Shown piece by piece: positions 43,163 to 56,469 of a stretch of DNA of 64,000 nt. This stretch comes from Flavobacteriales bacterium (lineage in GTDB: Bacteria; Bacteroidota; Bacteroidia; Flavobacteriales_F; PHOS-HE28). Each line of letters opens with the position of its first letter. Within the stretch, counting starts at the first letter, position 1. The translations under genes and the position numbers were made by a program. Below the pieces are notes generated by a model. That model saw only the letters and a program-made list of their open reading frames with translations, was not told where the DNA came from and did not search any database. The stretch is taken from positions 4,266 through 68,265 of the forward strand of contig JANMKC010000018.1 in NCBI GenBank assembly GCA_031371785.1. Reading direction: 5' to 3'.

Positions 43163-43470
43163 ACCCCCTCTAACTCCCCCGGTGGGGGAGGACCTGAAAA
43201 CCGATCAAGACAACTCCGAGAGAAAGTAGACACGGTTCCAACATGGTCGGCCCCTTCCCCACCGGGGAAGGTTTGGGATGGGGTCGCATTGAACACTTGC
43301 CCGTTGATGATCTGCTGAAGACGACCGACGAAAACGAAGAGACCGAAGACCACCTTTCCGATCCCGCTCGCAACCACTTTGTCAGTTCGAGCGAAGTCGA
43401 GAACCCACATAAACCACTACCCCGAAGGCGAAGCGGGAGCCGAGCCGAAGGACCAAAACCAACACGAAGC

Positions 43471-46035
43471 ATGTATGTAGTCAAACGCGACGGACGCCGG
43501 GAGGCGGTGAAATTCGACAAGATCACTGCCCGTGTGAAGAAGCTCTGCTATGGGCTCGATCCCATGGTGGATGCCACACAGGTCACACTGAAAGTGATCG
43601 ACGGCATCTTCGACGGTGTCACCACCACGGAGCTCGATAACCTCACGGCGGAAGTCGCGGCCACCATGACGGTGAAGCACCCGGACTACGCACAGCTCGC
43701 CAGCCGCATCGCGGTGAGCAACCTGCACAAGAACACCAAGAAGTCCTTCAGCGAGGTGATGAAGGACCTCTACGAATACCTCGACCCGAAGACCGGTGCG
43801 CGCGCCAGCCTTCTCGCTGATGATGTCTATACCATCATCAAGGAGAACGCGGATCATCTGGACAGCTCCATCATCTACGACCGCGACTTCACCTACGACT
43901 ACTTCGGTTTCAAGACGCTCGAGCGCAGTTATCTCTTGCGTCTGCACGGCAAAGTGGCCGAGCGTCCGCAGCACATGCTGATGCGCGTGGCCATCGGCAT
44001 CCACAAGAACGATCTCGACAGCGCGATCGAGACCTACAACCAATTGAGCGAAGGCTGGTACACGCACGCCACGCCCACGCTCTTCAACGCGGGTTCGCCG
44101 AAGCCGCAGATGAGCAGCTGCTTCCTCTTGCAGTTGAAGGACGACAGCATCAGCGGCATCTACGACACGCTGAAGCAATGCACGCAGATCAGCCAGAGCG
44201 CCGGCGGCATCGGCCTCAGCATCCACAACCTTAGGGCGAAGGGCAGCTACATCAAAGGCACCAACGGTACCAGCAACGGCATCGTACCGATGTTGCGCGT
44301 GTTCAACGACACCGCGCGTTACGTCGATCAAGGCGGTGGAAAGCGCAAGGGCTCGTTCGCCATCTACATGGAGCCGTGGCATGCGGACATCGAAGATTTC
44401 CTGGAGCTGAAGAAGAACCACGGCAAGGAGGAAATGCGCGCGCGCGACCTCTTCTATGCGCTGTGGATCCCGGACCTCTTCATGAAGCGCGTGGAGCAGA
44501 ACGCCGACTGGACACTGATGTGCCCGAACGAGTGCCCCGGCCTCGCGGACACCTGGGGAGAGAAGTTCGAAGAGCTGTACGAGAAGTACGAGCAGGAAGG
44601 ACGCGGTCGCAAGACGATGAAGGCGCAGGACCTCTGGTTCCACGTGCTGGAAAGCCAGATCGAAACGGGCACGCCCTATATCCTCTTCAAGGACGCTGCC
44701 AACCGCAAGAGCAACCAGCAGAACCTCGGCACCATCAAGAGCAGCAACCTCTGCACGGAGATCATCGAGTACACCAGCGCGGATGAAGTGGCGGTGTGCA
44801 ACCTCGGTTCCATCGCCTTGCCGAAGTTAGTGGAGCGTGGATCCTTCAATCACAACAAGCTCTTCGAAGTGACGCTGCAGTTGACGAAGAACCTCAACCG
44901 CGTCATCGACGAGAATTTCTATCCGATACCCGAAGCGCGCCGCAGCAACATGCGCCACCGCCCCATCGGCATCGGCGTGCAGGGCCTGGCGGATGCTTTC
45001 ATCCTGATGCGCTACGCCTTCGACAGCGTGGAAGCGAAGGTGCTGAACCGCGAGATCTTCGAAACCATCTACTACGCCGCGCTCACCGCGAGCAAGGATC
45101 TCGCGAAAGAACACGGCGCGTACGAGACCTATGAGGGGAGCCCGATGAGCAAGGGCGTGCTGCAGTTCGACATGTGGGAAGGCGTGAAGCCATCCGATCG
45201 CTGGGAGTGGGACATCCTGCGCGAGGAGATCAAGAAGTACGGCATACGCAACAGTCTGCTGCTCGCCCCGATGCCCACGGCGAGCACCGCGCAGATACTC
45301 GGCAACAACGAGTGCTTCGAGCCTTACACCAGCAACCTCTACACGCGGCGCGTGCTGAGCGGCGAGTTCATCGTGGTGAACAAGTACCTGCTGCGCGACC
45401 TGGTGAAGCTCGGCCTGTGGAGCGAGGAGATCAAGAACAAGATCATCGCCGCGAACGGCAGCGTCGCACATATCCCGGAGATCCCGCAGAACCTGAAGGA
45501 CCTCTACAAGACCGCCTGGGAGATCAGCCAGAAGACCATCATCGACATGGCGGCGGACCGCGGCGCGTACATCTGCCAGAGCCAGAGCCTGAACATCTTC
45601 ATGGAGAACGTGAACTTCGCCAAACTCACCAGCATGCACTTCTACAGCTGGAAGGCCGGCCTGAAGACGGGCATGTACTACCTGCGCACCAAGGCCGCCA
45701 CCGACGCCATCAAGTTCACGCTGGACAAGGCAACCATACAGAAATCAGCCGCTGCGGAAGTGGCCTCGAAGGCCCACGCGAACGGTGTTGCTGTGGGTAC
45801 AACCGTGATGCTCGACCCCGTGATGAGTGGACCCGTGATCGCTTCACGCAATGGCCTGTACGCAACTGCGGAGCAGCACGAAACCGAAACCCTGGTGGAA
45901 GAAGCGGGCGAACGCAACGGACCTGTGGAGAACGGCATGGCTGCGCACCGTGTGGCTGCTATGAGCGCAGATGCGCAAGCGCAAATTGCTTGCTCGCTGG
46001 ATGATCCCGATAGTTGTGAGATGTGTAGCGGGTAG
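43471..46035 (+). CDS. nrdA: ribonucleoside-diphosphate reductase subunit alpha (class Ia)
   Basis: ATP-cone N-terminus [18 protein letters not shown]; active-site ...SNLCTEI...; C-terminal cysteine tail ...CEMCSG. Confidence 0.95.
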
Positions 46036-46080
46036 AGGAATCGATTGAGGGCATTGTGAAAAAATGAGCCAACAGCTATC

Positions 46081-46515
46081 ATGCTTGGCGGAGTATTTGA
46101 CAGTTGGAAATTGAAGGTCTACTATACGCAGGCGTTGAGCGAGTATTCCGTTCTTCGACGAAGAGGATTTTCAGACTTGGATGCAAAGATTCACCTACTG
46201 AAGCTGGATCTTGAATTGAACAGCAGCATCGGAATTAGCTCGGCCATCAAGCAACGAGTTGAGGAACTAGATGTGCTGGGCGAAATCCAATTCATGGTCT
46301 GGTTCAATGCCTCACTGAAAACGAAGTGCCCTCGCATACCCATAGTCAAAAACATTAATGAGTTCGTTCGTGAAAGAAGTGTGTTGAGCGACATTGCGTT
46401 TCACTCTGGTGATTGGTGGGTGATCAAAGCGGACCTCAAGGATGACAGCCTTCCATCAGAAAGGGAATTCAATGATCTCGGCAAGGAACTAGCTGAACGA
46501 TTCCTCCTTGCGTAG
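46081..46515 (+). CDS. hypothetical protein A (low-GC island gene)
   Basis: 144-aa ORF at ~42% GC; its stop TAG is immediately followed by the ATG of the next gene. Confidence 0.5.
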   Translation: MLGGVFDSWKLKVYYTQALSEYSVLRRRGFSDLDAKIHLLKLDLELNSSIGISSAIKQRVEELDVLGEIQFMVWFNASLKTKCPRIPIVKNINEFVRERSVLSDIAFHSGDWWVIKADLKDDSLPSEREFNDLGKELAERFLLA

Positions 46516-47046
46516 ATGAATACCGCACCGCTCTCCTATGTATCGAAATTCGACTACTATGCTGTTCGTGACTCCCTTGGCCAAGAGGCGAGTCGGTCCG
46601 GTTTGAACACGGACATCATCAAGTCGATCCACGAAGTGTTCAAAGAGATTGAAGATGTTCACTATCTCAATGCGGTCCGTACCGACGCGACCCGATTGCG
46701 CGCAAGTCTGTTCCATTTGAAAGGTATGCGCTTGCTGCTGGATTTGAAAGCCATGGACTGCCCTGAGCAAATTTTGTCTCGGACTTCCGATCTCTTCATT
46801 GACCACTTTCTCAAGCTCACGGTTGCGTCTGTGAACACGGCGACGACAGCCAACCAACAGCTAAAGAACTTCACTGCCCTGGTGTCTATTCAGGCTGGGA
46901 TGAACGGAATAGAAGAATTGCTTCAATTGCGCCCGTCTGTTGAAGCAGCTTTGGCCATGGCGGCGATCGATCAAGACCTAAGGAAGCTTTTCATCGTTGT
47001 TCACCCGGTTGCACAACAGGAGATAGCGAATAGAGGTAAGCAATAA
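46516..47046 (+). CDS. hypothetical protein B (low-GC island gene); alpha-helical with an Rx4H HEPN-like motif
   Basis: 176 aa; RASLFH (Rx4H) is embedded in a helical context. Confidence 0.5.
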   Translation: MNTAPLSYVSKFDYYAVRDSLGQEASRSGLNTDIIKSIHEVFKEIEDVHYLNAVRTDATRLRASLFHLKGMRLLLDLKAMDCPEQILSRTSDLFIDHFLKLTVASVNTATTANQQLKNFTALVSIQAGMNGIEELLQLRPSVEAALAMAAIDQDLRKLFIVVHPVAQQEIANRGKQ

Positions 47047-47110
47047 CAGCATCCATCATAGACAAGCATGCACGCTCGTGTGCTTGCTGAACGACGCAAT
47101 GAGAGGGGGC

Positions 47111-47803
47111 CTATGTCGTGAAGGAGAGGTTTGTCTTGTCCTCCACAATTAACCTGTAGCCGGGAGTTCTCCCTCGTCGCTCAATCTCAAGCTTCCCGGT
47201 CGCTTTGACTGTTCCGCTATACTGGCCAGACACGAACTTTTTGACGAAGGCCAGCGTCATGCCGGACATGTCCAGTACTTCAACTGGAACGCTACAGCCC
47301 AAGAAGGTGAAGCCATTGGAAAGCTCCATGATCGCCCCCTGCTCCTTGATCTGGCCGGTAAGTGTCACGACTTGATTCTCGTAGCGCCCGGACTGAACAT
47401 CCGCACTTGTCAATGCAGAAGCATTGATCTCAATTGGCTTAGGCTTTGATTCACCTCCCCACATGCTCATGGGCCTTTTGCCAGCCGCCTGTCTCAATTG
47501 ATCTCGAACCTTATCAACACGATAAGAAAGAATCAGGCTTCGGTACTGAATGGCGACCAAGATATGCTGGCATGCCTGGATGTCGCCGCTCTTCTCCAAA
47601 TCCACCAAAAGAACCGCCAGTTCCTGAACCCGATGCGCATCGATCAACTTGCGCATTTCGTTCGAGAGCATCTGATAGCTCGCCTTGTTCTCGCGCTGTC
47701 GGAATGAATTGAAGCGCCAGAGCACAATGACGACTATGATCAGGACTATCCAGAGCATGCGAGTCGGAAGTGGTTGGAACAAGTGTAGCGAACTTTCCTC
47801 CAT
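47111..47803 (-). CDS. membrane-anchored protein with a C-terminal OB-fold (tRNA_anti-like) domain
   Basis: N-terminal TM helix MLWIVLIIVVIVLW; C-terminus ...YENQVVTLTGQI...GQYSGTVKATGKL... is OB-fold-like. Confidence 0.55.
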   Translation of the reverse strand: MEESSLHLFQPLPTRMLWIVLIIVVIVLWRFNSFRQRENKASYQMLSNEMRKLIDAHRVQELAVLLVDLEKSGDIQACQHILVAIQYRSLILSYRVDKVRDQLRQAAGKRPMSMWGGESKPKPIEINASALTSADVQSGRYENQVVTLTGQIKEQGAIMELSNGFTFLGCSVPVEVLDMSGMTLAFVKKFVSGQYSGTVKATGKLEIERRGRTPGYRLIVEDKTNLSFTT

Positions 47804-48139
47804 GCCATGGCTCTCCCAGCGGACACCTGTTCTATGCCGCGACTCGATCAACGACAGTGAATACGGGCAAAAACGAAGAGCATGAAATCCTAACTTCGAA
47901 GCAAACTTGCGGAAGCATGCGTAGCCGGAGTGTTGAACGCGAAGTTTGCGAAGACAAGCTGTGGGAAGTTCAGAAGGCATTGATCAGGGTCAACGGCATT
48001 CTTGACCAACCAAGCTTGGAAAACAGAGCGGTGTACATGAGCCAAAAGAAGGGCTTGGAAGAACAACGCGAAACATTGTCTGTGGAGATCGATCGACTCA
48101 CCGTCGGCATGTGACAATCTCGAAGTACCCGACCATAGC

Positions 48140-48421
48140 ATGGGGCGCGCACACAAGCTTTCCTGTCCGTCCTGCGGCTATGGTGAACGCTTCATCAGTG
48201 ATGGCCGTACGCGAGGAATGATTGCCGAACTACAGTCCATCCACTGCTTGGACTGCGCACGACTGTACAATGCGAATGTTGGCTCTTTCGAACCTCGGAA
48301 GACGTACCCCATCACGTGTCCAAAGAGCATTGTCCACATAGTTGTTGAGTGGCAACATCCGGGTCCTTGCCCCAAGTGCGGCACCACGCTTACTGACAGC
48401 GGAGTCATTTTGTGGGACTAG
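48140..48421 (+). CDS. small zinc-ribbon protein
   Basis: CPSCG ... CLDC ... CPKCG cysteine pairs. Confidence 0.5.
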   Translation: MGRAHKLSCPSCGYGERFISDGRTRGMIAELQSIHCLDCARLYNANVGSFEPRKTYPITCPKSIVHIVVEWQHPGPCPKCGTTLTDSGVILWD

Positions 48422-48484
48422 ACCCCATCTGCGCGAGTCTGCCAGACTTGTCCAGTTGGCCCCCAATCTCGCGCGAGTGTTAGG

Positions 48485-48549
48485 CCTCTGGCGGTGAACA
48501 AGTCTCGCGAACAGATGGCCAGAGGCAAAGAACGACCTTGCCGATCGGC
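48485..48549. repeat. 65-nt direct repeat H, copy 1, with an internal 9-bp-stem hairpin
   Basis: 63 of 65 nt identical to 49863-49927; stem gcctctggc (48484-48492) / gccagaggc (48518-48526), loop 25 nt. Confidence 0.85.
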
Positions 48550-48575
48550 TTGAGCAAGGCGAGCGACGGGATGGA

Positions 48576-48848
48576 TCAATACACCTCGTCGTGCGTTCCG
48601 ATGTCGATCAGCAGCACCTTGCTCTGGCCCTTGAGGAAAACGAATACCACGCGGCAGTCGTGGTCCACGCTGAACGCCCAGCAATGGCTGAGCTTCCCGG
48701 TGAGCTTGTGCGTCATAAGCCCGGCGGCGAAAGGGTCCGATGCGAAGAGCTGTAGTGCGTCCCAGAACCGTTGCTTCAGCAACGCATCAGGGCTGATGCG
48801 CTTATTATAGGAACGCTTGAAGCCTGCATCCCAAACCAGCTCGATCAT
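48576..48848 (-). CDS. type II toxin-antitoxin system RelE/YafQ-family toxin
   Basis: ...KLTGKLSHCWAFSVDHDCRVVFVFL...LLIDIGTHDEVY. Confidence 0.8.
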   Translation of the reverse strand: MIELVWDAGFKRSYNKRISPDALLKQRFWDALQLFASDPFAAGLMTHKLTGKLSHCWAFSVDHDCRVVFVFLKGQSKVLLIDIGTHDEVY

Positions 48849-49057
48849 GCTTCCAGGTCCTTGCGCAGGTCGGAGACCTTGCCCTTGCGCACCTTGCGCG
48901 CCTTGAGGTTCCGAGCGGCCATCTTCACGCGGATAACCAGCGCCTCCCGCGCGGCCTCCGCATAAGCCTTACGAATGATGCCAGCGGCGTACTCCTTCTC
49001 CTCCATGGGCAGGGCATCGAACTGCTCGATCACCGTATTGATGTCCTGGGTTCTCAT
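48845..49057 (-). CDS. antitoxin (RelB/DinJ-like) paired with the RelE-family toxin
   Basis: 70-aa gene overlapping the toxin start by 4 nt; TATCTTTG promoter-like motif ~20 nt upstream. Confidence 0.6.
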   Translation of the reverse strand: MRTQDINTVIEQFDALPMEEKEYAAGIIRKAYAEAAREALVIRVKMAARNLKARKVRKGKVSDLRKDLEA

Positions 49058-49090
49058 GGAGTTGGAAGTATGCTTCAAAGATAGGAGGCC

Positions 49091-49182
49091 GATACCCCCG
49101 ATCTCCCCCCCGAACACACGCTCGGGTGCGGCGCATCTCCGCCGCTCGGCTTATCCGCAAGCAACAAAGTCTGCCGATCGGC
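49091..49182. promoter_or_regulatory. ~93-nt repeat U, copy A (shared upstream element of the antitoxin genes)
   Basis: ~87% identical to 49754-49846; lies 34 nt upstream of the antitoxin ATG, next to a TAnnTTTG-like motif. Confidence 0.6.
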
Positions 49183-49200
49183 GGGATCGAAGTTGCCGCA

Positions 49201-49500
49201 CTATTTCTTCCGCTTGAACTTCTTCTTGGGGTCTTGGCTGGTGTGGAAGATGCGGTACACGACGATGGCATCGTCGAACACTTCGTAGATGATCACGAAC
49301 GGAAAGCCGTCCAACGGTGCTTGCCGGAAACGCTTGTACACGACCTGGAACCCTTTCGGGAACTGCACGATGTACTTCGCACAGTTCTCCACTTCAGCAA
49401 GGAAACGTTCATCAAGCCCAATCTGTCGTTGCCGATACCACCACATGGACTCCGCGATGTCCGTGTCGGCATCATCGCGGTAGATGAGCTTGCGGTTCAT
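49201..49500 (-). CDS. type II toxin-antitoxin system ParE/RelE-family toxin
   Basis: ...ESMWWYRQRQ...LDERFLAEVE...FPFVIIYEVFDDAIVVYRIFHTSQDP. Confidence 0.8.
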   Translation of the reverse strand: MNRKLIYRDDADTDIAESMWWYRQRQIGLDERFLAEVENCAKYIVQFPKGFQVVYKRFRQAPLDGFPFVIIYEVFDDAIVVYRIFHTSQDPKKKFKRKK

Positions 49501-49727
49501 CCACGCGCTGCTTTGCGTGCGCGTCGTCTCATTTGTTCCGGCGTGTAGCTCTTCCCTTCGCCGCGCAGGTAGCGTTTGCGCGCTTCATCCAATTCGGCTT
49601 TTTGCTCATCGCTCAGTTCGAAGCGGGTGCCGTGGTTCATGATCATATCCACGGAGCGCAACTGCGATTCGCTTTCGGTATCGAGGATCTGCTTGGCCAG
49701 CGCGACTTTCAGTTCAGTGAGCTTCAT
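49497..49727 (-). CDS. antitoxin (putative addiction-module component) paired with the ParE-family toxin
   Basis: MKLTELKVALAKQILDTESESQLRSV...SDEQKAELDEARKRY; 4-nt overlap with the toxin; TAGTTTTG motif upstream. Confidence 0.65.
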   Translation of the reverse strand: MKLTELKVALAKQILDTESESQLRSVDMIMNHGTRFELSDEQKAELDEARKRYLRGEGKSYTPEQMRRRARKAARG

Positions 49728-49753
49728 GCGGGTCGTTGTTGCCCCAAAACTAC

Positions 49754-49846
49754 GATGCCCCGATCGCACCACCTCCGAACCCACGCTCGGGTGCGGTGCA
49801 TCTCCGCCACTCGGCTTGACCGCGAGCAACAACGTCTGCCGCTCGG
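49754..49846. promoter_or_regulatory. ~93-nt repeat U, copy B
   Basis: see 49091-49182. Confidence 0.6.
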
Positions 49847-49862
49847 TGTGCGGTGCGTTCCG

Positions 49863-49927
49863 CCTCTGGCGGTCAACAAGTCTCACGAACAGATGGCCAG
49901 AGGCAAAGAACGACCTTGCCGATCGGC
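49863..49927. repeat. 65-nt direct repeat H, copy 2
   Basis: see 48485-48549; stem 49862-49870 / 49896-49904. Confidence 0.85.
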
Positions 49928-49971
49928 CTCATCACAGATAGGAAAAGCCCAGCGGCAGGATGGAGAAGAGT

Positions 49972-50173
49972 TCAGAAATGGATCGATAGCACAGCAGCGA
50001 GCCCTTCGCGGATCGGTTCCATCACCGTTGCGCTCACAACGCCAACTCGTTCGGTAAAGCGGTGCTCGCTGATCGAGCGCACTTGGAAACAGTCCGCCGC
50101 TGAAACCTTGCTGAGTTTGTTCTTCGCGTCCGGCGTGATGCGCACTTTCCAAGGAACTTGGGCATAGTGCATC
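49972..50173 (-). CDS. small hypothetical protein (67 aa)
   Basis: high-GC3 ORF MHYAQVPWKVRITPDAKNKLSKVS...; family not recognised. Confidence 0.3.
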
Positions 50174-50327
50174 GCAGGTTCAGGCAGGTTCGATCCCTTG
50201 TTTTCATCCCCGGTAGTGAGCGACACGTTCGACCTGCACTTATGAACTTGCGATAGAGGCAAAACTCTTTCTAGAATGCATGAGTCAGGAACAGGGATTG
50301 CTGCGGTAGCTGCATAACCTGAACACC

Positions 50328-50477
50328 ATGAGCCAGAAGAAAAGAACAGTCGCACCCCACGCCAAGCCTCCCGGCCTCGGTCGCAGCGCCATTACCGGCC
50401 GCTTCATGAGCGTGGCCGCTGCCAAGGCGCATAAGAAGACTGCCATCGTGATGGGCGGGAGGAGCGGAAAGAAATAG
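50328..50477 (+). CDS. small basic hypothetical protein (49 aa)
   Basis: MSQKKRTVAPHAKPPGLGRSAITGRFMSVAAAKAHKKTAIVMGGRSGKK; below the ORF-track length cut-off; speculative. Confidence 0.25.
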   Translation: MSQKKRTVAPHAKPPGLGRSAITGRFMSVAAAKAHKKTAIVMGGRSGKK

Positions 50478-50898
50478 GTCTACTTGCTCCGCCTGCCTTC
50501 CGGCTCGTCCGGTTTTGCCCACCGCATGTATGGGCGCTTGCTTTGTGGGCGATCTTCTACCGCGCCCTGCTCAGAGCAGACCGACACATTGGGTCCCGCC
50601 TCCAACTCGAACAGCCAGCTGAGCGCGCTGCACAAGTATTCTGCCTGAGCCGCTGTAAGGTCGGGTTGTGCAAGGCTTCCATCAGTTCCGCATGGCAACG
50701 TTCCGATCCCGCAGGAATCTCGATCTGTTCTACAGTCGGTAATTCTTGGAGGGATACAGGCGAGGTCATGGCAAAGGGATCTATCGATGCTTGATGCCGG
50801 ATCGGGCACCGATCCCCCGGATATTCACAGATGGTCTTCTTGCACTACCCGTGCGGATCCGAGATGCCGGTTCCGGAGGATCTTCTCGGAAGGAGGAC

Positions 50899-51240
50899 TT
50901 ACCTCAGCAGCAGGATGAGCAGCAGGATGATGATCACCGTGCCAGCCGAGATGTAGATCACCTCACCACCACGGTTGTAGGTGGCCGCTTCACGCTTCAG
51001 GTCTCTTACCTCGGTACGCAACGCCTTCCGTTCTTCATGTGTAAGCGTTGAGCGATCAATGGTGCTGATCGTCTCCAAGCGATCGACGATCTGGAGCACG
51101 CATTGTTGATCAGCGCTGTTCAACTTCTGGAAGTTCTCCTGGTTGATGCGTATGGGACTCGAAGGCTCACTGGCCAATGTCGTATTGGCGAAGAGGCCGA
51201 AGCCGAAGCTGACCAACAGGAGGTGTTTCATGTTCTTCAT
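50899..51240 (-). CDS. small secreted/membrane protein (signal peptide plus C-terminal TM helix)
   Basis: MKNMKHLLLVSFGFGLFANTTLA signal; C-terminal VIYISAGTVIIILLLILLL. Confidence 0.5.
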   Translation of the reverse strand: MKNMKHLLLVSFGFGLFANTTLASEPSSPIRINQENFQKLNSADQQCVLQIVDRLETISTIDRSTLTHEERKALRTEVRDLKREAATYNRGGEVIYISAGTVIIILLLILLLR

Positions 51241-51550
51241 GATCATGGGTTTGGCGCATCGCAGCCGAAGAAGCATGCCGCAAGGCTGCGCGGGCCTCGA
51301 ACGGTGCAATATCAGGCACGACCGCGCGAACGCCGGAAGAAAGAAGCTTGGTGTTGCGCGTAGCATATGGGGATATTCCTCCACAACATCTGCGGTGAAA
51401 AGTCCTCCGTATCCACAAATGCGGCACATGTTCGTACGGTCCCTGCTAGGGCATGCTTCCCATCGAGCAGGGATCGCTCATCCGGGCCAGAGGCTTTCGG
51501 ATCACCGATATTCGCCTGTTCCGCTTCTCTTTGCAGCACGCACAACCGAT

Positions 51551-52231
51551 ATGGCCATGACCAACGAACCTCGCACGATCGTGAAAAAAGCGAACAGGAT
51601 CGAGAACTACGAGAAGATCGAATGCAGCTTGATACTGATCGACCTGAGCGGTTTCACGCAGTTGCTCTATCACGCCAGCTACTCGGAGAAGATCATGCGC
51701 ACGGTGGTGCTGGCGATGAAGAAGATGTTCCAGGACGCGATGCTCTCGGCTTCAGCCGCGCGGGACATCCAGATCATCAATACGACAGGCGACGGCTTCA
51801 TCGCGATCGCCATCGGCGACACACCATCGCGTACGGCGGTGAAATACGTGGAGCAGGTGCGCATCCATTTCGTGCAGTACGTGAGTTCGATCGTCAACTC
51901 CGTCCCGTTCCGGCAGAAGGTGGACCTGCGGATCGCGCTGCACCACGGGAGCGTGTACCGGATGGAGATCGCCGATCCTTCGGGCGCTGCCTATCCCCTC
52001 TACCTTGGCGACGACATCAACCTGATCGCGCGCGTGATCAATGGCCAGGTGGCGCGCCGCTATGGGGTGGCCATCACCAAGCACTTCCTCCGGCGACTGA
52101 TGTTGCAGGACAAGAGCACGACCCCGGACGAGGTGATCGTGGACCGCAATCGCTATCCGGAGCAGATCGACATCTACCGGCTGCCGGACCGCATTCCCGA
52201 ATACGTTCCGGCGAAGAAGCGCAAAGCATAG
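51551..52231 (+). CDS. standalone class III nucleotidyl cyclase domain protein (adenylate/guanylate-cyclase-like catalytic domain only)
   Basis: metal-binding Asp motifs LILIDLSGFT and INTTGDGFIAIAIGD; LRIALHHGSVY; transition-state motif GDDINLIARV (N...R); the canonical K/D (ATP) or E/C (GTP) specificity positions are occupied by T/N and L. Confidence 0.7.
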   Translation: MAMTNEPRTIVKKANRIENYEKIECSLILIDLSGFTQLLYHASYSEKIMRTVVLAMKKMFQDAMLSASAARDIQIINTTGDGFIAIAIGDTPSRTAVKYVEQVRIHFVQYVSSIVNSVPFRQKVDLRIALHHGSVYRMEIADPSGAAYPLYLGDDINLIARVINGQVARRYGVAITKHFLRRLMLQDKSTTPDEVIVDRNRYPEQIDIYRLPDRIPEYVPAKKRKA

Positions 52232-52265
52232 GATCCATGCCTTGCGTGACATGCGCCGGCCGCCG

Positions 52266-52541
52266 TCACTTCCTCAGCACGCGCCAGATCCACCGCGCCA
52301 GGAAAAAGAGCAACACACCGCTCAGAAGCGCACCAAGAAGAACTCCGGCGACGTATCCCCCTTGATAGGCCGCGTTGCCATCGCTCGTTCGGGAGAAGGC
52401 GACCATCGCACCATGGACGACCGCCCATGCGAGCAGCAAGCAAGGCCCGATGCAGACAACGGCGAGGAATTTCCTGAGCACGCGCAAAGATGTCGGCACG
52501 ATCGATCCCCTTGACCAGCGCCGTAAACGTCGGTCGAGCAT
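52266..52541 (-). CDS. small two-TM membrane protein (hypothetical)
   Basis: 91 aa; two hydrophobic helices. Confidence 0.45.
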   Translation of the reverse strand: MLDRRLRRWSRGSIVPTSLRVLRKFLAVVCIGPCLLLAWAVVHGAMVAFSRTSDGNAAYQGGYVAGVLLGALLSGVLLFFLARWIWRVLRK

Positions 52542-52691
52542 CGGCCCCCGCTTTCCCTATGCTCACGCAGGGTCTCAGCAAGAGCGGTGTGCGTTCCAAC
52601 AGATCACTGGACCCTGCGGGGTCTTGGTGGCTCAGGGTCCCGAATTGGAGACCCTGAGCGAGGGAAGTTCATCATCGTTGGAACGATCAGA

Positions 52692-53114
52692 CTACGACGT
52701 GAGCGATGCACCCGTATCGAGCATCGACCCAGCAATTGTCCGCTGAGGAATGCGAATGCTCGTGATGGTTGGTCGGCCGATATCGAAGGCAACGGTCTTG
52801 CGCCAGAGAAAGCTGCGTTGCTTGATCCCGTGGATCTCCGACCACGGGATCAGCAAAGGCGGATGACCGATGGAGAACAGGAACAATACCGAAAGGTGAA
52901 GTCCGAACCCGTCATGTCCGACGAACAGGATGTTCCGGTAAGAAACAATGCCGACGTGTCCGGAACACCAACTCGTTTCCATCGGGGATACTGATGGTGC
53001 ACGGAAATTCTTCGCGAGACCCTTCCACCCACTGAACCAGGCCAGGAAATGGAACAGCAGGAGGACGAAGCCTGCGACCAAGGGCACAGCGAGCCAGCCG
53101 CTCATCGCATCCAT
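52692..53114 (-). CDS. membrane protein (hypothetical)
   Basis: 140 aa; N-terminal TM helices WLAVPLVAGFVLLLFHFLAWF. Confidence 0.45.
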   Translation of the reverse strand: MDAMSGWLAVPLVAGFVLLLFHFLAWFSGWKGLAKNFRAPSVSPMETSWCSGHVGIVSYRNILFVGHDGFGLHLSVLFLFSIGHPPLLIPWSEIHGIKQRSFLWRKTVAFDIGRPTITSIRIPQRTIAGSMLDTGASLTS

Positions 53115-53125
53115 CCGATCCGCAT

Positions 53126-54340
53126 CTACTTGAACGCCGCCAGCCCCGTCACCTCCTGCCCGGTGATGAGCAGGTGGATGTCGTGCGTGCCTTCGTAGGT
53201 GACCACGCTTTCGAGGTTCATCATGTGGCGCATGATCGGATACTCGTTGGTGATGCCCATGCCGCCGAGGATCTGTCGGGCTTCGCGGGCCACGGTAAGG
53301 GCGAGCATCACGTTGTTGCGCTTGGCCATGCTGATCTGCGCGGTGGTGGCGCGGCCTTCATTGCGCAGGGTGCCGAGGCGCCACGTGAGCAGTTGCGCCT
53401 TGGTGATCTCGGTGATCATCTCGGCGAGCTTCTTCTGCGTGAGCTGGAACTGGCCGATGGGCTTGTCGAACTGGATGCGCTGCTTCGCATAGCGTAACGC
53501 CGTGTCGTAGCATTCCATCGCCACGCCGAGCGTACCCCACGCGATGCCGTAGCGCGCGCTGTCCAAGCAGCCAAGCGGTGCACCGAGACCGCTCTTGTTC
53601 GGCAGCAGGTTGGTCTTCGGGACCTTCACGTTGTCGAACACGAGTTCACCGGTGGGTGATGCGCGCAGTGAAAGTTTGCCATGTGTCGTCGGTGTGGTGA
53701 AGCCCTCCATGCCGCGCTCCACGATGAGGCCATGGATGCGGCCGCTCTCGTCCTTCGCCCACACCACCGCGATGTCCGCGATGGGGCTGTTGCTGATCCA
53801 CATCTTCGCGCCGTTCAGCAAGTAGTGGTCGCCCTTGTCGATGAAGTGGGTGGTCATGCCACCGGGGTTGCTGCCGTGGTCCGGCTCGGTGAGACCGAAG
53901 CAGCCGATCTTCTTGCCCGCGGCGAGTTGTGGCAGCCACTTTTTCTTCTGCTCCTCGTTGCCGTATTTCCAGATCGGGTACATCACCAATGATCCCTGCA
54001 CGCTGCACAGGGAGCGCAGTCCGCTGTCGCAACGTTCGATCTCCTGCATGATCACGCCATAGCTGATCTGGTCCAGGCCCATGCCGCCGTATTCGATGGG
54101 CACCATCGGCCCGAACGCACCTATCTCCGCCAGACCGGGAATGATCTCCGGATGGAATTCCGCCTTCTCGAAGCTCTCTTCGATGATCGGCTTCAGGTAC
54201 TTGCTTACATGCTTGCGCGCCGTTTCACGGATCAACTTCTGCTCCTCGGTGAGCAGTTCATCCACCAGGTAGTGGTCGTGGAACTGGAAGAGGTCGGTAG
54301 CGGTGGACTTCTTTGCCGGAGTGGTCGCGGTGGAATTCAT
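53126..54340 (-). CDS. acyl-CoA dehydrogenase, glutaryl-CoA dehydrogenase-like
   Basis: ...CFGLTEPDHGSNPGGM...; C-terminal YEGTHDIH...; full-length ACAD architecture. Confidence 0.9.
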   Translation of the reverse strand: MNSTATTPAKKSTATDLFQFHDHYLVDELLTEEQKLIRETARKHVSKYLKPIIEESFEKAEFHPEIIPGLAEIGAFGPMVPIEYGGMGLDQISYGVIMQEIERCDSGLRSLCSVQGSLVMYPIWKYGNEEQKKKWLPQLAAGKKIGCFGLTEPDHGSNPGGMTTHFIDKGDHYLLNGAKMWISNSPIADIAVVWAKDESGRIHGLIVERGMEGFTTPTTHGKLSLRASPTGELVFDNVKVPKTNLLPNKSGLGAPLGCLDSARYGIAWGTLGVAMECYDTALRYAKQRIQFDKPIGQFQLTQKKLAEMITEITKAQLLTWRLGTLRNEGRATTAQISMAKRNNVMLALTVAREARQILGGMGITNEYPIMRHMMNLESVVTYEGTHDIHLLITGQEVTGLAAFK

Positions 54341-54435
54341 GTGGATGTGTGGAGCCTGTTCAACAGTGGGTGCAAAAGTAGGACGGCCCATCGCGCCCTT
54401 TCCCGCAGGAGCGGTCCACCTTTGCACCCTTGGGA

Positions 54436-55136: not shown

Positions 55137-55895
55137 ATGAAGACCAAGTCCATCCTCGTTACCCAGCCTGAGCCTACGGACGACAAGAACCCTTATGCCG
55201 ATCTGGCCAAGAAGTTCAGTTTGAAGATCGACTTCCGGGCCTTCATCAAGATCGAAGCGGTGCCGGGACAGGAGTTCCGCCAGGAACGGATCAACGTACT
55301 GGACCACTCGGCCATCGTGCTCACCAGCCGCAATGCGGTGGACCACTTCTTCCGCATGTGCAAGGAGTTGCGCCTCACCGTGCCGGAAAGCATGAAGTAT
55401 TTCTGCGTAAGCGAAAGCGTCGCCTACTATGTGCAGAAGTACATCGTGTACCGCAAGCGGAAAGTGTTCATCGGCAAGCAGAGCTTCGGCGACCTGATGG
55501 ATGTGATCAAGAAGCACAAGGAGGAGCGCTACCTCGTACCGTGCAGCGATATCCAGAAGCAGGAGATCCCCGCTTTGCTGGACAAGGCTGGCGTGCAGTA
55601 CACCAACGCGGTCTTCTATCGCACAGTGGCCAGCGACCTTAGCGATATGAAGGACCTGGCGCACGACATGCTCGTGTTCTTCAGCCCCGGTGGCATCGAG
55701 AGCCTGCGAAGGAACTTCCCGAAATTCAAGCAGAACGGCACCGTGATCGCCGCTTTCGGGCCTACCACCGCAAAGGCCGTGAAGGACGCGGGGTTCCGTT
55801 TGGACATCGAAGCGCCCATGCCCGAAGCACCCAGCATGACCGGTGCCATCGAACTGTACATGAAGAAGGCTGCCAAGGAGGCGAAGAAGAAATAG
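55137..55895 (+). CDS. hemD: uroporphyrinogen-III synthase
   Basis: KSILVTQPEP...; HemD fold-typical ~250 aa. Confidence 0.8.
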   Translation: MKTKSILVTQPEPTDDKNPYADLAKKFSLKIDFRAFIKIEAVPGQEFRQERINVLDHSAIVLTSRNAVDHFFRMCKELRLTVPESMKYFCVSESVAYYVQKYIVYRKRKVFIGKQSFGDLMDVIKKHKEERYLVPCSDIQKQEIPALLDKAGVQYTNAVFYRTVASDLSDMKDLAHDMLVFFSPGGIESLRRNFPKFKQNGTVIAAFGPTTAKAVKDAGFRLDIEAPMPEAPSMTGAIELYMKKAAKEAKKK

Positions 55896-55902
55896 GTCTC
55901 GA

Positions 55903-55999
55903 CTGCGCTCGACCTGACAAATACGGCTGCGCTCGACCTGACAAATACGGCTCCGCTCGACTTGACAAATACGGCTCCGCTCGGCTTGACAGATGATCG
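55903..55999. repeat. tandem 24-bp direct repeats (about 4 units), each containing a (T/C)TGACA motif
   Basis: ctgcgctcgacctgacaaatacgg twice exactly, then ctccgctcgacttgacaaatacgg, then a degenerate fourth unit. Confidence 0.85.
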
Positions 56000-56067: not shown

Positions 56068-56469
56068 ATGCCAGCCGCACGACCTCGCGCTACCTTCCGC
56101 AAGAACGAACGCCTCACTGGCCGCGACGCCATCAACGCGGTAGTGAAGAACGGATGCGCCATGAACGAAGCACCTTTCCGCATTGTGGGCCTCATCACCT
56201 CCCTTGATTCCACATCTCCGACGCAAGTGGCCTTCGCCATACCGAAGCGCTATGTGCATGACGCCGTGGACCGGAACCTGATCCGCCGCCGGATACGCGA
56301 GGCTTACCGCATGGACAAGGAGCGCTGGTACGCGCCGCTGCGCGCCGCGGATAAACAATGCGCCTGGCTGCTCATCTACCAGTCTTCACATTCGTTGGCG
56401 TTCACCGAAACGCGCAGCAGACTTTCCAGCGTTCTGGACCGTTGGCTCAAACAGCATCTTGCCCCATGA
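56068..56469 (+). CDS. rnpA: ribonuclease P protein component
   Basis: basic protein [16 protein letters not shown]...AFAIPKR...[13 protein letters not shown]. Confidence 0.85.

Follow-up and report, generated by a model that had tools for sequence, protein, structure and literature searches.

A predicted minimal class III nucleotidyl cyclase with an Asn/Leu base pocket in a Flavobacteriales bacterium

We describe a small nucleotidyl cyclase gene found on contig JANMKC010000018.1 of a Flavobacteriales bacterium (assembly GCA_031371785.1), within a stretch of 64,000 nucleotides (nt) that was analyzed as a whole and is hereafter called the window; coordinates are counted from its first letter. 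The initial annotation of this locus had proposed a stand-alone, minimal class III cyclase of 226 amino acids (aa) and had weighed two explanations for it, namely a variant of the Pycsar defence systems with membrane-protein effectors or an unrelated signalling cyclase. The gene and the region preceding it are as follows:

51551..52231, + strand: minimal class III nucleotidyl cyclase gene, 226 aa, stop codon included, N-terminus MAMTNEPR
51247..51550, no strand: divergent intergenic region 5' of the cyclase gene, 304 nt

The cyclase gene, its fold and its family

The plus-strand frame that contains the cyclase was listed as 51143-52231, within which the ATG at 51551 makes a convincing start. 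Translation from M3 (51557) instead would yield a protein of 224 aa, which is the length and the start of the public protein P0001, 100% identical to the window cyclase. The frame is a genuine gene and not a chance open reading frame (ORF), because it matches the family PF00211 (39.3 bits, E=6.9e-10, against a Pfam gathering cut-off of 21.9), has 61 homologous clusters and shows a core-like G+C content at third codon positions (GC3). Its G+C content by codon position is 0.56/0.37/0.85, and the GC3 of native window genes is 0.82 for ribonucleotide reductase, 0.83 for acyl-CoA dehydrogenase and 0.82 for an S41 protease, with core genes at 0.82-0.84. The intergenic region upstream presumably holds promoters. 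A sigma-70 scan of it returned zero sites, an Rfam search at E<=1 returned nothing relevant, only noise, and the upstream regions of the cyclase relatives shared no common motif.

No significant Pfam family besides PF00211 was found in the protein and the NCBIfam scan was empty, while all 40 of the 40 relatives examined matched PF00211 above the gathering cut-off. The AlphaFold2 (AF2) model, built with 40 homologues, reached a predicted local distance difference test score (pLDDT) of 91.4 and a predicted template modelling score (pTM) of 0.85. In this model, the first 20 or so residues are disordered, and one cyclase-type domain takes up the rest of the chain to the C-terminus. Neither the Pfam and NCBIfam scans nor the model revealed an added regulatory or sensor domain. 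When the model was compared with the Protein Data Bank (PDB) by Foldseek, the top 50 matches were all class III adenylyl cyclase (AC) or guanylyl cyclase (GC) domains (E 3.1e-10 to 7e-8), amongst them soluble GC (sGC), Cya2, CyaC, photoactivated ACs, CyaB, the mammalian C1/C2 domains and Rv1900c, with sequence identities of 11-18% and TM-scores of about 0.6-0.75. These results bore out the stand-alone, minimal class III cyclase of the initial annotation as well as its statement that regulatory and sensor domains are lacking.

The catalytic motifs were located where the initial annotation had placed them, in ILIDLSGFT (D31), TTGDGF (D81) and GDDINLIAR (N157 and R161). An alignment of 40 members of the family, which share 40-69% identity with the window protein (mean column identity 55%), shows no change at the metal ligands D31/D81 or the transition-state pair N157/R161, nor in the SGFT phosphate loop or the GDG motif. 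The four residues are also retained in more distant members of the family. A strongly conserved C-terminal element, DEVIxDRNxYPExIxxYxLP, forms a terminal beta-hairpin in the AF2 model. By analogy with known architecture, it would correspond to the hairpin that ends canonical cyclase domains and not to an extra domain.

The comparison with canonical homodimeric class III AC/GC domains (Synechocystis Cya2, Spirulina CyaC, P. aeruginosa CyaB, M. tuberculosis Rv1900c and M. avium Ma1120) thus shows a common fold, the two metal-binding Asp residues, the Asn/Arg pair and the GFT and GDG motifs. The window protein is only 11-18% identical to the solved structures, carries a family-specific invariant hairpin motif (DEVIxDRNxYPE) and, unlike those enzymes, has Asn/Leu in place of the Lys/Asp or Glu/Cys (Ser, Thr, Gly and others) pair. 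That a bare cyclase domain can be active is illustrated by the single-domain Ma1120 (PMC4215837).

The substitution of the base-specifying pair was assigned by HMMER alignments to the C2 domain of AC8 and to the beta subunit of sGC. N77 occupies the position of the adenine-contacting Lys or guanine-contacting Glu, and L150 the Asp/Cys position; at the latter, one of the two alignments indicated P149 by way of a one-residue gap, and anchoring on the conserved G153 gave L150. The predicted base pocket consists of L29, N77, T79 and L150, with T78 and T79 never varying and position 150 hydrophobic in all family members. Most members have Asn at position 77, which a distant subgroup replaces by Ser, Val, Ala, Thr or Ile. 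The non-canonical specificity residues of the initial annotation were therefore found again, now as N77/L150, and neither the Lys/Asp pair of ATP-specific enzymes nor a Glu/Cys-type pair of GTP-specific ones is present. As aligned, the Asn/Leu pocket fits no characterised specificity type. Since the pocket has neither pair, the product of the enzyme cannot be read from its sequence. The base-specifying pair separates the AC from the GC subtype and is no criterion of class III membership.

Loss of the canonical base-contacting pair and the drift of position 77 in distant members are also what can be put forward for a pseudo-cyclase, that is, a dead or very weak nucleotide-binding regulatory module that has kept the fold and makes no messenger. 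Isolated class III cyclase domains are, moreover, often poorly active without an activator. We consider this explanation quite improbable. Over 40 sequences down to 40% identity, no member departs from the catalytic D31, D81, N157 and R161, the GFT loop or the GDG motif, which is typical of active enzymes, and N157/R161, lost from the degenerate domain of the tandem relatives described below, are never lost in the window family. Thus, of the alternatives that could have undone the class III assignment, the protein is not an obvious pseudo-cyclase, and it is not a GGDEF diguanylate cyclase either: there was no GGDEF match at E<=1, no GG(D/E)EF motif, and only AC/GC domains amongst the top Foldseek matches.

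Another candidate, DUF2652 (PF10851), shares with the window protein a single domain of about 180-250 aa, the lack of transmembrane (TM) and sensor regions and an occurrence in Bacteroidota, being known from Bacteroidetes and Actinobacteria (PMC4886424). Membership was rejected, as the window cyclase scored 14.0 bits against a cut-off of 22.1 and weak matches were seen in 4 of the 40 relatives only. The DUF2652 proteins of Bacteroidetes have a Glu-Lys/Arg specificity pair and a His-Arg pair, where the window family has Asn/Leu and Asn-Arg.

The family is tiny, sharply bounded and well conserved. Amongst 5.8 billion proteins, a single-sequence search recovered 44 clusters and a profile search 61; an exhaustive HMMER scan of 1.84 billion representatives yielded 76 proteins at E<=1e-3 and 15 at 1e-30. 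All members are 190-240 aa long and carry no added domain. The genomes that hold them are metagenome-assembled genomes (MAGs) of Flavobacteriales (UBA3364, UBA7690, an MBR sludge MAG and a 'Chryseobacterium' MAG) and one MAG labelled Dehalococcoidia. In genomes that share synteny around RecR, the cyclase is 69-78% identical, compared with 71% for a neighbouring GT2 gene, 77-82% for an E2 gene and 83-87% for RecR; its divergence is near that of the adjacent GT2 and E2 genes and somewhat faster than that of RecR. The cyclase is a vertically inherited, native chromosomal gene under purifying selection in Flavobacteriales-like Bacteroidota. Searches of 50,697 phage records, of 72,556 plasmids and of IMG/VR gave no match to the family. 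An origin from a mobile element was rejected on the grounds of these searches and the lack of a tRNA nearby.

Flanking small ORFs and the Pycsar comparison

The small ORFs beside the cyclase, which the initial annotation had described as membrane proteins of 114, 91 and 140 aa, are present as stated. Together with the next core gene they are:

50899..51246, - strand: 114/115-aa ORF, signal-like at its N-terminus and coiled in its middle part, with a TM anchor at the C-terminal residues 95-113 (Kyte-Doolittle score 2.99); GC3 0.74
52266..52541, - strand: 91-aa ORF with two TM segments (residues 25-43 and 64-82), convergent with the cyclase; GC3 0.71
52692..53114, - strand: 140-aa ORF with a strong N-terminal TM segment and one weak TM segment, convergent with the cyclase
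53126-54427, - strand: acyl-CoA dehydrogenase gene

The three ORFs have a GC3 of 0.70-0.74 and are superior to every alternative frame, which makes them plausible genes. The 140-aa ORF is more likely the tail of the acyl-CoA dehydrogenase transcription unit, because it lies on the same strand and begins 11 nt past the stop codon of that gene; the 91-aa ORF comes next. None of the three gave a significant Pfam, NCBIfam or PADLOC match at E<=1, including cyclic nucleoside monophosphate (cNMP)-binding and TIR models, in agreement with the earlier statement that the neighbours lack a recognisable cNMP-binding domain. Additionally, none has a homologue beside the cyclase in any of the roughly 17 dereplicated lineages surveyed (see below). 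The three small membrane ORFs are incidental neighbours of the cyclase.

These observations bear directly on the proposal of a Pycsar-like unit, in which the cyclase would make a cyclic pyrimidine or other cNMP upon infection and an adjacent small membrane protein would act as the effector. Several features of the locus recall such systems: the cyclase is minimal and stands alone, as do most PycC enzymes, small TM proteins adjoin it, its pocket residues are not of the purine type, the surrounding stretch is variable and holds toxin-antitoxin cassettes, and weak matches to PycC hidden Markov models (HMMs) were obtained. One PADLOC PycC model matched the window cyclase at 13.9 bits (E=0.0067), and 25 of the 40 relatives gave weak matches to PycC HMMs, the best at E=1.4e-8. 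In a control, however, ten ordinary multi-domain class III cyclases (HAMP-type and others) scored 42-110 bits on the same models. Because ordinary cyclases score higher, the matches are generic cross-matches, and by these scores the family lies farther from PycC than ordinary class III cyclases do.

Structural and residue comparisons pointed in the same direction. A profile search of PDB sequences recovered AC8, sGC and AC5 and no PycC chain even at E<=10, and no PycC was amongst the Foldseek top 50. The pockets of the solved enzymes are F100/R142/Q144 in EaPycC, Y50/D94/R97 in BcPycC and F60/K104/F109 in AnPycC (PMC11224242), and the L29/N77/T79 set of the window protein is unlike all three; the EaPycC positions were mapped from its published metal-binding residues D102 and D146, while for BcPycC and AnPycC the comparison was limited to the residue sets.

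The gene context argues similarly against a Pycsar-like unit. None of the neighbours was matched by a PycTM, PycTIR or cNMP-binding model at E<=1, their lengths of 91-140 aa are too small for an effector that combines a cyclic nucleotide-binding domain (CNBD) with TM segments, and none recurs beside the relatives. The 91-aa and 140-aa ORFs also share their strand with the acyl-CoA dehydrogenase gene and are convergent with the cyclase. With PycC and the cGMP-forming Pucsar cyclases, the window protein shares a stand-alone domain of about 200-250 aa and a non-canonical pocket; unlike them, it is not flanked by a CNBD-TIR or 3TM effector and does not form part of a conserved two-gene operon, and its family is absent from the mobile elements searched and evolves slowly, at a core-gene rate, whereas immune cyclases evolve at an accelerated rate (10.64898/2026.08.12.744502). 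Pycsar membership was therefore rejected for want of a specific PycC match, an adjacent effector and a conserved gene pair, and on account of the different pocket. A Pycsar-like reading is already largely refuted by the comparative data and is, in our estimate, extremely unlikely; the other suggestion of the initial annotation, an unrelated signalling cyclase, was judged the better description.

The wider setting is a non-core stretch of about 7 kb (46036-53125) between the ribonucleotide reductase gene (43243-46035) and the acyl-CoA dehydrogenase gene. It contains, in order, three ORFs, toxin-antitoxin cassettes, about 1 kb poor in ORFs, the 114-aa ORF, the cyclase and the two small TM ORFs, and only the cyclase has a core-like composition. 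No tRNA or integrase was seen near it. The three leading ORFs (46516-47046, 47111-47980 and 48140-48421) have a foreign-looking GC3 of about 0.6, compared with 0.82-0.85 in core genes, and are without family matches. A YafQ-like toxin (48576-48848) and a ParE-like toxin (49201-49500), each with an antitoxin ORF upstream, lie in a region (48479-49934) bracketed by two pairs of direct repeats. The first pair (D1; 78 nt, 91% identical; 48479-48556 and 49857-49934) contains a hairpin with a 9-bp stem, and the second (D2) is 75 nt long and 88% identical (49107-49181 and 49772-49846). No further copies of either occur within the window, and they look like cassette-boundary or promoter elements. An attC-like reading of these 75-78-nt repeats was dropped, as the second copy has no GTTRRRY core. 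The ORF-poor segment (49935-50898) holds no ORF with a coding-like codon-position G+C pattern and no Rfam match, and may be a decayed gene or non-coding DNA. Further downstream, a tandem repeat of 3.6 copies of a 24-nt unit, CGCTCGACCTGACAAATACGGCTC (95% matches), occupies positions 55906-55991, in the intergenic space between a gene ending at 55895 and an ORF starting at 56068.

Gene neighbourhoods of the relatives

Neighbourhoods were surveyed at 42 loci around relatives of the cyclase, which after dereplication at 90% identity represent about 17 lineages with usable flanks. When the ORFs of the window were searched against the 42 loci and the ORFs of the loci against the whole window by reciprocal tblastn, the cyclase alone was shared. 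The window cyclase has no conserved operon partner in its genome. In three lineages, RecR lies about 60-180 nt downstream of the cyclase, with syntenic GT2 and E2 genes beyond. Six of the approximately 17 lineages carry an nSTAND1 NTPase (PF20703, 135 bits) within 1.4 kb of the cyclase, and the neighbours in other lineages are unrelated (RpoN, LemA/DUF3137, Transgly_assoc, a second cyclase and others).

Five lineages have both the nSTAND1 gene and a gene for a conserved protein of 346-349 aa, here called p346, adjoining the cyclase. In four of them (L008, L013, L014/L018 and L039) the two genes are divergent from and upstream of the cyclase, with two nSTAND1 paralogues in L039, and in L036 the cyclase, p346 and nSTAND1 follow one another in this order and are all co-directional. 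In L025, where the cyclase is 42% identical to that of the window, two nSTAND1-WD40 genes lie downstream across a gap of about 20 nt, without p346. The loci of this type are:

L008:937-6630, cyclase, p346 and nSTAND1
L013:2454-8642, cyclase, p346 and nSTAND1
L018:819-6669, cyclase, p346 and nSTAND1
L036:1087-6950, cyclase, p346 and nSTAND1
L039:1-8624, cyclase, p346 and nSTAND1
L025:6001-12597, cyclase and nSTAND1, without p346

In a rough neighbour-joining (NJ) tree, the nSTAND1-linked loci fall on separate branches of the family, a basal one amongst them, and do not form a single clade. Because the adjacency outlasts rearrangement and deep divergence, it suggests a functional coupling of cyclase and nSTAND1. 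In addition, at L029:705-6385 a member 46% identical to the window cyclase is followed after 65 nt by a gene for a 1672-aa Ser/Thr protein kinase-WD40 protein. The cyclase/p346/nSTAND1 module is absent from the PADLOC catalogue.

The p346 proteins (family sequences P0127-P0246; for example L008:4875-5915, - strand) belong to a large and remarkably well conserved Bacteroidota family of more than 1056 clusters, found in Bacteroidales and Flavobacteriales, with a mean column identity of 69% and dozens of invariant charged residues. No Pfam or PADLOC match was obtained for p346, and its AF2 model (pLDDT 81; a helical N-terminal half and a small beta C-terminal half) had no fold match in the PDB at E<0.1.

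The remote profile matches outside the cyclase family included many proteins of 1230-1405 aa with two tandem cyclase domains followed by AAA_16 and TPR domains (P0088, P0091, P0092, P0098, P0104 and P0116), of which P0088 also has an N-terminal EAD7 domain. Their first domain keeps the metal-binding Asp and has usually lost the Asn/Arg pair, which the second domain keeps, a pseudo-heterodimer layout like that of the mammalian adenylate cyclases. In contrast to these STAND-fused proteins, which split the catalytic residues over tandem domains, the window cyclase has all of them in one chain, as in enzymes of the homodimer type. The similarity between the two groups is weak (E 1e-8 to 1e-4). The matches fit both the published clade of cNMP cyclases associated with STAND NTPases, 'immune clade 1' (10.64898/2026.08.12.744502), and the report that conflict systems centred on NTPases employ cNMP cyclases (PMC7159879).

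The closest non-syntenic relative, P0005 (63% identical, on a contig of JGI 3300075153), lies 1.2 kb from a second PF00211 cyclase of 350 aa. Nearby genes encode a bestrophin-like channel, a Na+/H+ antiporter and a ligand-gated ion channel.

These neighbourhoods raise the question of whether the window cyclase provides the signalling for an nSTAND1 STAND-NTPase system that lies unlinked elsewhere in the genome and may or may not include p346. Oligomerisation of the NTPase would then control dimerisation of the cyclase, or the cNMP would control the NTPase module, and such a system would serve in conflict, defence or developmental signalling. The occurrence of nSTAND1 in six lineages and three arrangements, the giant kinase-WD40 gene directly downstream in L029, the scatter of linked loci over the tree, the enrichment of cyclase-cyclase-AAA_16-TPR STAND proteins (one with EAD7) amongst the few remote matches outside the family and the published cyclase clade all speak for such a system. 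The window cyclase itself, however, is neither fused nor adjacent to a STAND NTPase, although its relatives repeatedly adjoin nSTAND1 genes, and tblastn of nSTAND1 and p346 against the entire window gave no match. About 10 lineages are without the linkage, and part of the adjacency may reflect inherited synteny in one Flavobacteriales clade. Furthermore, p346 forms more than 1000 clusters, compared with about 60 for the cyclase, which indicates that p346 and nSTAND1 are independent of the cyclase; the cyclase also has no effector-associated adaptor domain and only the weak similarity to STAND-fused cyclases noted above. Altogether, we regard an unlinked role in an nSTAND1 system as the main rival explanation, tentative and, on present evidence, unlikely.

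Proposed function and significance

Taken together, the gene in the window is a real and probably active bare-bones nucleotide cyclase, judging by its profile match, predicted fold and conserved residues. The most likely mechanism, which we favour with moderate confidence, is that of a homodimeric, two-metal chromosomal cyclase making a cNMP for a receptor encoded elsewhere. By analogy with all characterised homodimeric class III enzymes, two chains would pair head-to-tail, such that one chain would bind two divalent metals through D31 and D81, and its partner would supply N157 and R161 to stabilise the transition state. A bound nucleoside triphosphate (NTP) would thereby be converted to the 3',5'-cyclic NMP and pyrophosphate. 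The enzyme's output would presumably depend on how strongly the gene is expressed, or on a partner or receptor whose gene lies elsewhere. Dimerisation, catalytic activity and a second-messenger role are what we infer for the window cyclase from these comparisons.

Four observations weigh against this interpretation. The nSTAND1 genes adjacent to the cyclase in six of the approximately 17 lineages hint that the family may be something other than a housekeeping enzyme acting on its own. The N77/L150 combination has no precedent as a pair, so that activity and product can only be inferred. Amongst the ORFs of the window, no candidate cNMP receptor was found below E=1 by phmmer with an E. coli CRP sequence, a single-sequence search of low sensitivity. 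Lastly, the cyclase sits in the variable stretch of about 7 kb that also holds two toxin-antitoxin cassettes.

A more far-reaching possibility connects the homodimeric cyclase with the neighbourhoods of its relatives. This rare family might be the dedicated second-messenger synthase of an undescribed Bacteroidota module composed of a minimal cyclase, p346 and an nSTAND1 NTPase, with a cNMP selected by an Asn/Leu pocket unlike those of AC, GC and PycC enzymes and with the window copy acting in trans. We put this forward as a speculation that is unlikely to hold.

For the mining of defence systems, the locus serves as a negative example, in that a minimal cyclase beside small TM proteins is insufficient to call a Pycsar system. 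As it stands, the finding adds a small family of bare class III cyclases from Flavobacteriales-like bacteria to an ordinary, known kind of enzyme. It would matter more broadly if the product were other than cAMP or cGMP, or if the linkage of the relatives to nSTAND1 and p346 were to represent a real signalling or conflict module.

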